Of a stretch of DNA of 64,000 nt, positions 60,339-61,167 are shown one piece after another. The notes under the pieces are model-generated. The model worked only from the letters and a program-made list of their open reading frames with translations. It ran no database searches and was not told the origin of the DNA. The first letter of the stretch is position 1; each line of letters starts with the position of its first letter. The DNA comes from Escherichia coli O127:H6 str. E2348/69 (lineage in GTDB: Bacteria; Pseudomonadota; Gammaproteobacteria; Enterobacterales; Enterobacteriaceae): assembly GCF_000026545.1 (NCBI RefSeq), contig NC_011601.1; one strand, 5' to 3'. The translations under genes were made by a program, and so were the position numbers.

Positions 60339-60776
60339 ATGATTAAAGAACGTATTTCTTATATCATTCCGATTGCGATGGATGAAGGCAACCCAGTAAC
60401 TCCAGTTCTTATCTATGAAATGGATAAAGACTCCCATGAAGTGGATCTATCATTTGGCGCTTTTTTTATCGGCCTTAAGGCTACAAAAAAATATTCCATA
60501 GGCATTGAGGTTTTCAATGCTCAAGAAATACCGATACCAATTGACACAAAACTGTACTCCAACCATAAGTTTTTTACGGTAGCAGAAGCCAACGATGGAG
60601 AAACCATCGTATCAACTTCTATGAGAATTAACTTCCCAAGGGTGAAAATTATCAAGCCTGGGATATTCGAAGTTAGAGCATCACTGGTTAATCCTGATAA
60701 AGGCGAAGTAATTGATGTAAAAAGTTCGTTTTTTGACGTGAAGATAACAGGATCAGTTCGCGATGAGTTTAGATAA
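60339..60776 (+). CDS. Gene 1 of cassette at the rexA position (145 aa, unknown function)
   Basis: Starts 8 nt after the cI stop in the PRM transcript; AT-rich; no similarity to RexA recognised. Confidence 0.55.
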   Translation: MIKERISYIIPIAMDEGNPVTPVLIYEMDKDSHEVDLSFGAFFIGLKATKKYSIGIEVFNAQEIPIPIDTKLYSNHKFFTVAEANDGETIVSTSMRINFPRVKIIKPGIFEVRASLVNPDKGEVIDVKSSFFDVKITGSVRDEFR

Positions 60777-61134
60777 CAAGGTTGCTCAGCTTCGTCCAAA
60801 TCAAAACATATCTCGCCCAATTGGACACTATTCCACTGATGATGCATACTCACGGCATGGTGGAGGAAACGGCGGAGGTAACATGCTTGAGGCTAGAGTT
60901 GCAAAGCTAGAGTCTGATGTTGAATACATCAAGCGCGATCTCGCTGAAGTAAAGTCAGATATAAAATCTGTAGATTCTCGTCTGTCAGGTATTGAGACAA
61001 GCATTAGCTCAGCAAAAATCACCATCAAGGCATCTGCGGTCGTTGTCAGTTTCGTGTTCGCATTTTGCGCCTACATTTTTGGAAGTTATGTTTCCAAAAT
61101 CCTTGATGCCTTAAACGGACTCGTTCTTAAGTAA
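60763..61134 (+). CDS. Gene 2 of cassette at the rexB position: coiled-coil protein with C-terminal TM helix
   Basis: ORF 60763..61134; an internal start at 60883 has a strong GGAGG RBS and gives an 83-aa protein; helical repeat LEARVAKLESDVEYIKRDLAEVKSDIKS then TM SAVVVSFVFAFCAYIFGSYV. Confidence 0.55.
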   Translation: MSLDNKVAQLRPNQNISRPIGHYSTDDAYSRHGGGNGGGNMLEARVAKLESDVEYIKRDLAEVKSDIKSVDSRLSGIETSISSAKITIKASAVVVSFVFAFCAYIFGSYVSKILDALNGLVLK

Positions 61135-61141
61135 CACACAA

Positions 61142-61167
61142 CCCGGCCTCAGCGCCGGGTTTTCTTT
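61142..61167 (+). terminator. Rho-independent terminator ending the immunity operon
   Basis: Hairpin cccggc-ctcagc-gccggg followed by ttttcttt, 8 nt after the gene 2 stop. Confidence 0.75.

Follow-up and report, generated by a model that had tools for sequence, protein, structure and literature searches.

The 64-kb window analysed here (the whole stretch of 64,000 nucleotides) is 100% identical to the chromosome of Escherichia coli E2348/69, an enteropathogenic E. coli (EPEC) O127:H6 strain, and its right end is the lambda-type immunity region of a prophage, in reversed orientation relative to the lambda map. Two small genes lie between the cI repressor gene and the terminator equivalent to lambda Timm. 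They are referred to as gene 1 (145 residues; positions 60339-60776, plus strand) and gene 2 (123 residues in its long form; 60763-61134, plus strand), and are best explained as a lysogeny-expressed cargo ("moron") cassette in an exchangeable slot of the lambdoid backbone. Their presence in repressor operons across immunity types, the copies inserted among tail genes, the patchy distribution, the exchange of modules and the swappable partners all suggest that the cassette serves lysogenic conversion at the inner membrane, on its cytoplasmic side.

The cI-Timm interval is an exchangeable slot

The slot downstream of the repressor is the site of RexAB, the first known phage-exclusion system, and it houses BstA and toxin-antitoxin cargo as well. 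In the window, the upstream gene of the operon is cI (59618-60331, plus strand), which encodes a 237-residue repressor of the LexA/S24 type and lambda immunity. Only 7 nucleotides separate the cI stop codon from the start of gene 1, genes 1 and 2 overlap by 14 nucleotides, and no terminator-like site was found on the plus strand from cI to the end of gene 2. This arrangement suggests that both genes are transcribed with cI from PRM/PRE. The G+C content is 37-39% in gene 1, 42-45% in gene 2 and 45-48% in cI. The original prediction, which had described two AT-rich genes in the rexAB position, was right about their place between cI and Timm, whereas AT-richness holds for gene 1 and not for gene 2.

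Phage records were searched with window positions 59300-61650. The cI/cro/OR/OL backbone is found at 95-98.5% identity in HK97, mEp234, HK106, HK244, CL707 and other phages, and every phage match spans about 65% of the query, that is, all but the cassette. The interval between cI and Timm (60332-61139 in the window) is occupied by the hicB-hicA toxin-antitoxin genes in mEp234 and HK106, by gp49-gp48 in HK97, by a single gene encoding a 301-residue protein in CL707, and by two genes, a gene-1 relative and a gene for a phrog_5820 protein, in HK244. A survey of the cI-to-PL interval in lambdoid phages, proposed along with the original prediction, thus reveals unrelated cargo in the same slot of a shared backbone, and the E2348/69 cassette fills this known slot.

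The downstream edge of the slot is an intrinsic terminator (61140-61167, plus strand), in which a terminator-like hairpin (61140-61161) is followed by TTTTCTTT. In alignments, homology with HK97, HK244 and CL707 restarts exactly at the hairpin and continues to OL/PL, and the GenBank annotation of HK244 and CL707 identifies the hairpin as Timm, the terminator of the PRM/PRE transcript. Since the hairpin and its flank are common to HK97, HK244 and CL707, the terminator belongs to the lambda backbone. The clean terminator noted at the end of the pair therefore exists, but it is the shared Timm and not the cassette's own.

Both open reading frames are conserved as proteins, at the same position, in the Salmonella phages epsilon34 and g341c (74% and 47% identity). 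The epsilon34 homologues (gp45/gp44) were described as genes that follow the repressor gene "like rexA and rexB" and lack database matches (Villafane et al. 2008, PMC2629481); the rex-like position of these homologues has thus been known since 2008.

Pairing and distribution of the two genes

We collected 66 loci carrying a gene-1 relative, and a gene-2-side search provided 80 further viral loci. A gene encoding the glycine-linker/coiled-coil/transmembrane protein comes next in 65 of the 66 gene-1 loci, at a distance of -23 to +2 nucleotides (most commonly -14), and at the single unpaired locus the contig ends. The two genes thus behave as the unit that had been proposed. In nearly all gene-1 loci the gene directly upstream is a repressor gene, and the 26 distinct repressor sequences fall into more than ten unrelated types, including S24/LexA-type and short helix-turn-helix proteins. 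Most of the 80 gene-2-side loci also lie directly behind a repressor. Some of these copies are preceded by an Arc/Mnt-like repressor gene, itself transcribed divergently from an antirepressor-like open reading frame, and other copies of the cassette are separate inserts among tail genes.

The cassette follows an Arc/Mnt-type ribbon-helix-helix repressor in three P22-like viral contigs (L107, L110 and L130; about 2826-3830). In all three, an open reading frame of about 300 residues is divergent from the repressor and is read as a putative antirepressor, by analogy with P22 immI. Apart from the cI operon, the operon of the Arc/Mnt-type repressor provides the cassette with another setting that is expressed during lysogeny. 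In another viral contig (L056:3444-3937), gene 1 is frameshifted or interrupted by a stop codon and the downstream gene 2 is intact; this locus is possibly a natural partner-less variant.

Searches with the gene 2 profile returned at least 678 clusters at 90% identity (E <= 1e-5), mostly from Enterobacterales, and the homologues range from 82 to 159 residues in length among the best 120 of the 678. The cassette is present in 15 of 5426 complete E. coli genomes according to megablast and in 21 of 5426 according to blastn, and no copy was found in the plasmids searched. The 276-position phrog_3556 profile hinted at a fused "Rosetta-stone" protein; none was found among the best 120 of the 678 homologues or in isolated phages.

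Gene 1 encodes a beta-sandwich protein

Gene 1 matches the entire profile of phrog_5893, a PHROG family with no assigned function (E = 8.5e-65, profile positions 1-140 of 140). It has no match in Pfam at E <= 0.001, in NCBIfam or in PADLOC. A word-indexed search retrieved 20 close clusters, all enterobacterial, and a gene-1 profile run against 1.84 billion representatives added a wider set of 130-150-residue proteins (E = 1e-4 to 1e-23). Proteins of the wider family as a whole have 130-160 residues. HK24405, the gene-1 relative in HK244, is clearly related (hhalign 98.8%, E = 1.2e-16). The statement that gene 1 matches no recognisable family must be revised, as the protein belongs to phrog_5893 and to a wider beta-sandwich family that includes HK24405.

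The structure model of gene 1 is a confident, cytoplasmic, eight-stranded all-beta sandwich similar to binding and adhesin domains, and no signal peptide was found in the protein. PDB searches with the family profiles returned coiled-coil noise only. A comparison of the gene 1 model with AFDB50 revealed many stand-alone proteins of 130-145 residues with the same fold (TM-score 0.62-0.75) in Firmicutes, including Streptococcus, Lactobacillus, Listeria, Staphylococcus and Clostridium. Because Bacillus PBSX has xepA beside xhlA, these proteins may be Gram-positive counterparts.

Gene 2 encodes a coiled-coil protein with a C-terminal transmembrane helix

Gene 2 matches phrog_6136 over the full length of the profile (E = 3.6e-46, positions 1-120 of 120). 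The match to Pfam XhlA (PF10779) is borderline (independent E = 0.002, score 18.7) and covers residues 42-88 only, which correspond to the coiled coil. A match to phrog_1193, annotated "hemolysin", has E = 4.7e-4, and NCBI names close relatives of gene 2 "hemolysin XhlA". Searches of PADLOC-DB v2 yielded weak coiled-coil noise only (CorA-like, E = 0.0039).

Four segments can be distinguished in the protein, all encoded on the plus strand. An N-terminal tail of 32 residues (LRPNQ...DDAYSRH; 60763-60858), which is conserved with epsilon34, is followed by a GGGNGGG linker (residues 33-39; 60859-60879). The coiled coil (residues 42-88; 60886-61026) consists of seven unbroken heptads, with L, L, I, V, V, I and A at the a positions and V, V, L, I, L, I and I at the d positions, and runs straight into the C-terminal transmembrane helix, placed by hydropathy at residues about 89-110 (61027-61092). 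This is the single hydrophobic segment of the protein, with a Kyte-Doolittle maximum of 2.11 (19-residue window) at residues 92-110, and beyond it lies a 13-residue tail, SKILDALNGLVLK. We also ran AlphaFold2 on a fusion of genes 1 and 2 joined by a GS (glycine-serine) linker, with a 16-row paired alignment. In the resulting model, residues 40-122 of gene 2 (fusion positions 215-297) form one helix. Heptads, hydropathy and the fused model agree with the original description of gene 2 as a coiled coil followed by one C-terminal transmembrane helix.

Since no N-terminal signal sequence was recognised on reading the sequence, gene 2 is likely to be a tail-anchored inner-membrane protein, with its N-terminus and bulk in the cytoplasm. 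Residues 1-40 are conserved as protein in relatives including epsilon34, and the 123-residue reading is therefore real. As for the XhlA-like or holin-like character once assigned to gene 2, the architecture is indeed of the XhlA type, but the Pfam match is only borderline and the prophage has a separate holin.

N-terminal tails follow the partner and C-terminal modules are shuffled

In a set of 95 related loci, in all of which the two genes are adjacent, the upstream partners form 21 clusters, the N-terminal tails of gene 2 fall into 23 types and the C-terminal coiled-coil/transmembrane modules into ten. The correspondence between tail type and partner cluster is nearly one-to-one. The C-terminal types, in contrast, are shuffled. 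For instance, the type found in the window is combined with 13 partner clusters and another with seven, and the gene-1 cluster of the window is found with six C-terminal types. The breakpoint of these exchanges is the conserved GGGNGGG-MLEARVAKLESD segment. As the simplest functional reading of this pattern, we infer that the upstream partner binds the N-terminal tail of gene 2.

Partners other than gene 1 were also identified for gene 2-like proteins: a CxxC...CxxC Zn-ribbon protein (phrog_4293), a protein of about 90 residues (phrog_4231) and an unclassified 103-residue protein (L143). In HK244, HK24405 is followed by HK24404, a coiled-coil/transmembrane protein of phrog_5820, and HK97 gp48 belongs to the same PHROG. 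The latter protein features a coiled coil and one transmembrane helix near the C-terminus, and is encoded after the small soluble 88-residue gp49 (both genes at L148:1658-2562). Neither the alternative partners tested nor the HK97 and HK244 proteins have PADLOC matches beyond weak coiled-coil noise. The varied partners and the HK97 and HK244 pairs therefore reveal a recurring design, in which a small soluble partner precedes a tail-anchored coiled-coil protein.

An internal start may yield a short form of gene 2

An ATG codon at 60883, preceded by GGAGG at 60874-60878 with a spacing of 4 nucleotides, would give a putative short form of 83 residues (60883-61134, plus strand) comprising only the coiled coil and the transmembrane helix. 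The GGAGG motif sits in the glycine codons of the linker (GGT GGA GGA AAC GGC GGA GGT AAC ATG). A start codon is found at the internal position in all 49 unique nucleotide contexts of the family (45 ATG, 4 GTG), and GGAGG or AGGAGG occurs 4-13 nucleotides upstream in 38 of them, mostly at 4 or 7 nucleotides. The motif is kept even where the glycine run is reduced to two residues (ACA GGA GGT; GAA GGA GGT).

Synonymous resampling with the codon usage of the window gives an expectation of 13.9 +/- 3.1 such contexts (maximum 24 in 2000 trials), and shuffling the glycine codons of each sequence gives 23.5 +/- 2.8 (maximum 33 in 2000 trials), against the 38 of 49 observed; the counts come from related loci, so that these figures overstate independence and are not to be taken as probabilities. 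Conservation of the internal GGAGG beyond expectation suggests a second, shorter product, and gene 2 probably also yields the tail-less 83-residue form. A stand-alone version of 69 residues, containing the coiled coil and the transmembrane helix, is present at L131:3455-3722. It begins at the conserved MEVRIAKLESD and has its own AGGAG 8 nucleotides upstream; an in-frame stop codon lies 19 codons upstream, with no earlier start. The ambiguity between 83 and 123 residues pointed out in the original prediction seems to reflect two genuine starts, with conservation at the protein level for the N-terminus and at the DNA level for the internal GGAGG and ATG.

Proposed function and alternatives

The following mechanism can be proposed. 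The cytoplasmic part of gene 2, a long and probably oligomeric heptad coiled coil, is preceded by the glycine linker and the 32-residue tail. The gene 1 beta-sandwich would most likely dock on this tail to form a membrane-tethered complex, and the internal ribosome-binding site would provide a short form of gene 2 devoid of the docking tail. The soluble partner might act as the specificity or sensing subunit and the coiled-coil/transmembrane module as the membrane effector, which could act by abortive infection, making the membrane permeable or depolarising it, or could instead arrest a step that takes place at the inner membrane. How much long form is made relative to the short one would set the threshold. 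Exclusion of superinfecting phages by such an abortive, membrane-acting system is the most likely function, though we rate it below even odds; this sensor/effector reading is drawn from position, architecture and modular diversification only. More tentatively still, the pair may stand for a whole group of systems, large and so far overlooked, by which prophages exclude other phages or abort infection. A common tail-anchored coiled-coil effector, whose two in-frame starts would provide a long and a short version, would be combined with interchangeable cytoplasmic sensors docking on the tail (beta-sandwich, Zn-ribbon or gp49-like). Such systems, HK97 gp48/gp49 included, would be analogues of RexAB and SieB/Esc of independent origin.

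Several points weigh against the proposed mechanism, besides the relatedness of the loci behind the GGAGG counts. In the fused AlphaFold2 model, the gene 2 tail has predicted local distance difference test (pLDDT) values of 30-39 and forms only a 3-residue strand at residues 8-10, so that docking is without support from modelling. As the tail codons adjoin the partner gene, the correspondence between tails and partners could derive from plain physical linkage, with recombination at the linker/coiled-coil DNA. The glycine run could be conserved merely as a flexible linker, and the epsilon34 subgroup lacks a perfect GGAGG. A single transmembrane helix with a 13-residue periplasmic tail, as in gene 2, is not known to form pores. 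When the pair was considered as a known anti-phage defence system, no defence match was found in PADLOC, Pfam or NCBIfam, either for the two proteins or for the alternative partners tested. In the searchable literature we found no experiment on any family member and no link between XhlA-like proteins and defence, nor any paper naming the protein accessions or PHROG identifiers.

Other functions may account for the same observations. The tethered complex might hinder DNA entry or the ejection/tape-measure machinery while the cell survives, as do HK97 gp15, P22 SieA and T4 Imm. The lysogeny-expressed positions and the inner-membrane location fit such a non-abortive superinfection exclusion too, some copies of the cassette are inserted among tail genes, as is the HK97 gp15 moron, and no enzymatic or obviously toxic domain was found in either protein. 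This mechanism is nevertheless unlikely in our view, as gene 2 is nearly all cytoplasmic, the type found in the window having about 13 residues past the transmembrane helix and thus little to reach a periplasmic injection apparatus, and its partner has no signal peptide. A role in the prophage's own cycle, either as a lysis accessory or timer comparable to XepA-XhlA or in the lysis-lysogeny modulation reported for RexA, seems somewhat less likely again. It would agree with the borderline XhlA match (E = 0.002), with the "hemolysin XhlA" names of relatives and with an internal second start that recalls holin/antiholin pairs. In PBSX, moreover, the lytic cassette that contains xhlA also includes xepA, whose product has two beta-sandwich domains, and lysis requires XhlA (PMC6834076).

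The pair might also be an addiction module that stabilises the prophage, with gene 2 as a membrane toxin, gene 1 as its neutraliser and defence as a by-product. The sibling phages mEp234 and HK106 carry hicBA in the same slot, and a tight two-gene operon with translational overlap, encoding a small hydrophobic and a soluble protein, is what such a module would look like. Both genes depend, however, on the promoter of the repressor, so that both would cease to be expressed at once; the first gene would encode the antidote, which shows no sign of instability, and homology to known toxin-antitoxin families is lacking. We regard this explanation as improbable. The least likely of the explanations considered is that the pair acts in lysogenic conversion by modifying host physiology or virulence, for instance envelope stress tolerance or the interaction of EPEC with its host, and has no anti-phage role. 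The strain is an EPEC isolate, the beta-sandwich resembles binding and adhesin domains, and bor and lom of lambda are prophage-expressed factors of this kind. Yet no export signal is present in gene 1, members of the family occur in Escherichia, Salmonella, Enterobacter, Klebsiella, Serratia, Yersinia and environmental metagenomes and show no association with pathogens, and fast exchange of modules is more often seen in conflict systems.

If the exclusion function proposed above is correct, this small gene pair (about 0.8 kb) would represent a new type of effector in prophage-encoded immunity, with at least 678 clusters, strict pairing, swappable partners and a likely dual start, and a function would be assigned to HK97 gp48/gp49 and epsilon34 gp44/gp45. 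The proposal predicts binding between partner and tail, a role for the two isoforms and a membrane phenotype. Should the function be unrelated to phages, gene 2 would still define a widespread family of tail-anchored coiled-coil proteins of enterobacterial inner membranes.

The surrounding prophage

In the immunity region, cII (58882-59178) and cro (59317-59517) are encoded on the minus strand. Beyond the terminator, the OL3-OL1 operators and PL (about 61324-61387, plus strand) mark the start of the next operon, that of N (61636-62019, plus strand), and belong to the conserved backbone. Four open reading frames annotated with no function (phrog_1636, 1273, 10407 and 1376) lie between N and cIII (62078-63845), a region that holds sieB-type genes in lambda and P22. 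One of them encodes a 322-residue protein, rich in Lys, Gln and Glu, annotated only as "coiled-coil domain-containing". None of the four matched PADLOC.

The E2348/69 prophage (window positions about 1-54300; 1566700-1594650 in the record; locus L147) is a mosaic: its immunity, replication, nin and Q genes are lambdoid, its lysis cassette is of the lambda type, and its late genes are those of a contractile tail, among them the genes for baseplate J/gp47, the sheath initiator and the spike. A truncated tail fibre gene is present, and the integration site, with IntS, adjoins tRNA-Arg and yfdC. Genes for tRNA-Asn and tRNA-Thr are located directly ahead of the holin gene. A lambda-family holin, a GH24 endolysin and an Rz1-like spanin gene are annotated downstream of Q. 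Seen from the gene pair, these lysis genes are on the far side of the immunity region, past the replication, nin and Q genes. Gene 2 was also considered as the lysis holin of the prophage. It is not adjacent to an endolysin gene, and holin, endolysin and spanin genes are present in a separate cassette of the prophage; therefore, gene 2 is not the lysis holin.

Comparison with known systems

RexAB is the natural functional analogue of the gene pair, as the two share the cI-Timm slot, the repressor operon and the combination of one soluble and one inner-membrane protein. RexA is a 279-residue DNA-binding protein and RexB has four transmembrane helices, whereas gene 1 is a 145-residue beta-sandwich and gene 2 has one C-terminal transmembrane helix after a coiled coil. 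Identification of the pair as RexA/RexB was rejected, since gene 1 is all-beta, gene 2 has a single transmembrane segment and no match indicating a sequence relationship was found in Pfam, PADLOC or NCBIfam. In this respect, the view that the pair is unrelated to rexA-rexB stands. Likewise, a type II toxin-antitoxin system such as HicAB was considered and rejected, as no toxin or antitoxin family match was found in PADLOC, NCBIfam or Pfam.

The XepA-XhlA pair of PBSX resembles the gene pair in that a beta-sandwich gene neighbours a gene for a small protein, XhlA, in which a coiled coil is combined with a C-terminal transmembrane helix, and the order of folds is the same. XhlA, which acts on the cytoplasmic membrane (PMC6834076), belongs to a late lysis operon with holin and amidase, in contrast to the location of the gene pair in a repressor operon. 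XepA also differs from gene 1, being a 279-residue, two-domain, pentameric and exported protein.

The gp49/gp48 pair of HK97 and the HK24405/HK24404 pair of HK244 occupy the same slot in the same backbone, and in both a soluble protein precedes a coiled-coil protein with one transmembrane helix. HK97 gp48 and HK24404 belong to phrog_5820 rather than phrog_6136, do not contain the GGGNGGG-MLEARVAKLESD core and have a longer tail, rich in Ser, Pro and Gln, past the transmembrane helix. No report on the function of either pair was found in the searchable literature.

Two systems recall the dual-form model put forward here for gene 2. The lambda S107/S105 proteins are two membrane proteins read from one frame that differ at the N-terminus, and their ratio sets permeabilisation. 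Lambda S has three transmembrane helices, its forms differ by 2 residues and it is encoded in the late operon. The two forms of gene 2 would, in contrast, differ by 40 residues, with one transmembrane helix and in the repressor operon. SieB of P22 and lambda is a prophage-expressed, membrane-associated abortive-infection protein. Ranade and Poteete (1993) reportedly found that an internal in-frame start of sieB yields the shorter Esc, which modulates the long form. SieB differs from the gene pair in being a single gene located between N and cIII, no SieB-type PHROG or PADLOC match was found for the pair, and the internal start of gene 2 is deduced from conservation of the sequence only. SieB/Esc is nevertheless the closest precedent for the long and short forms proposed for gene 2.

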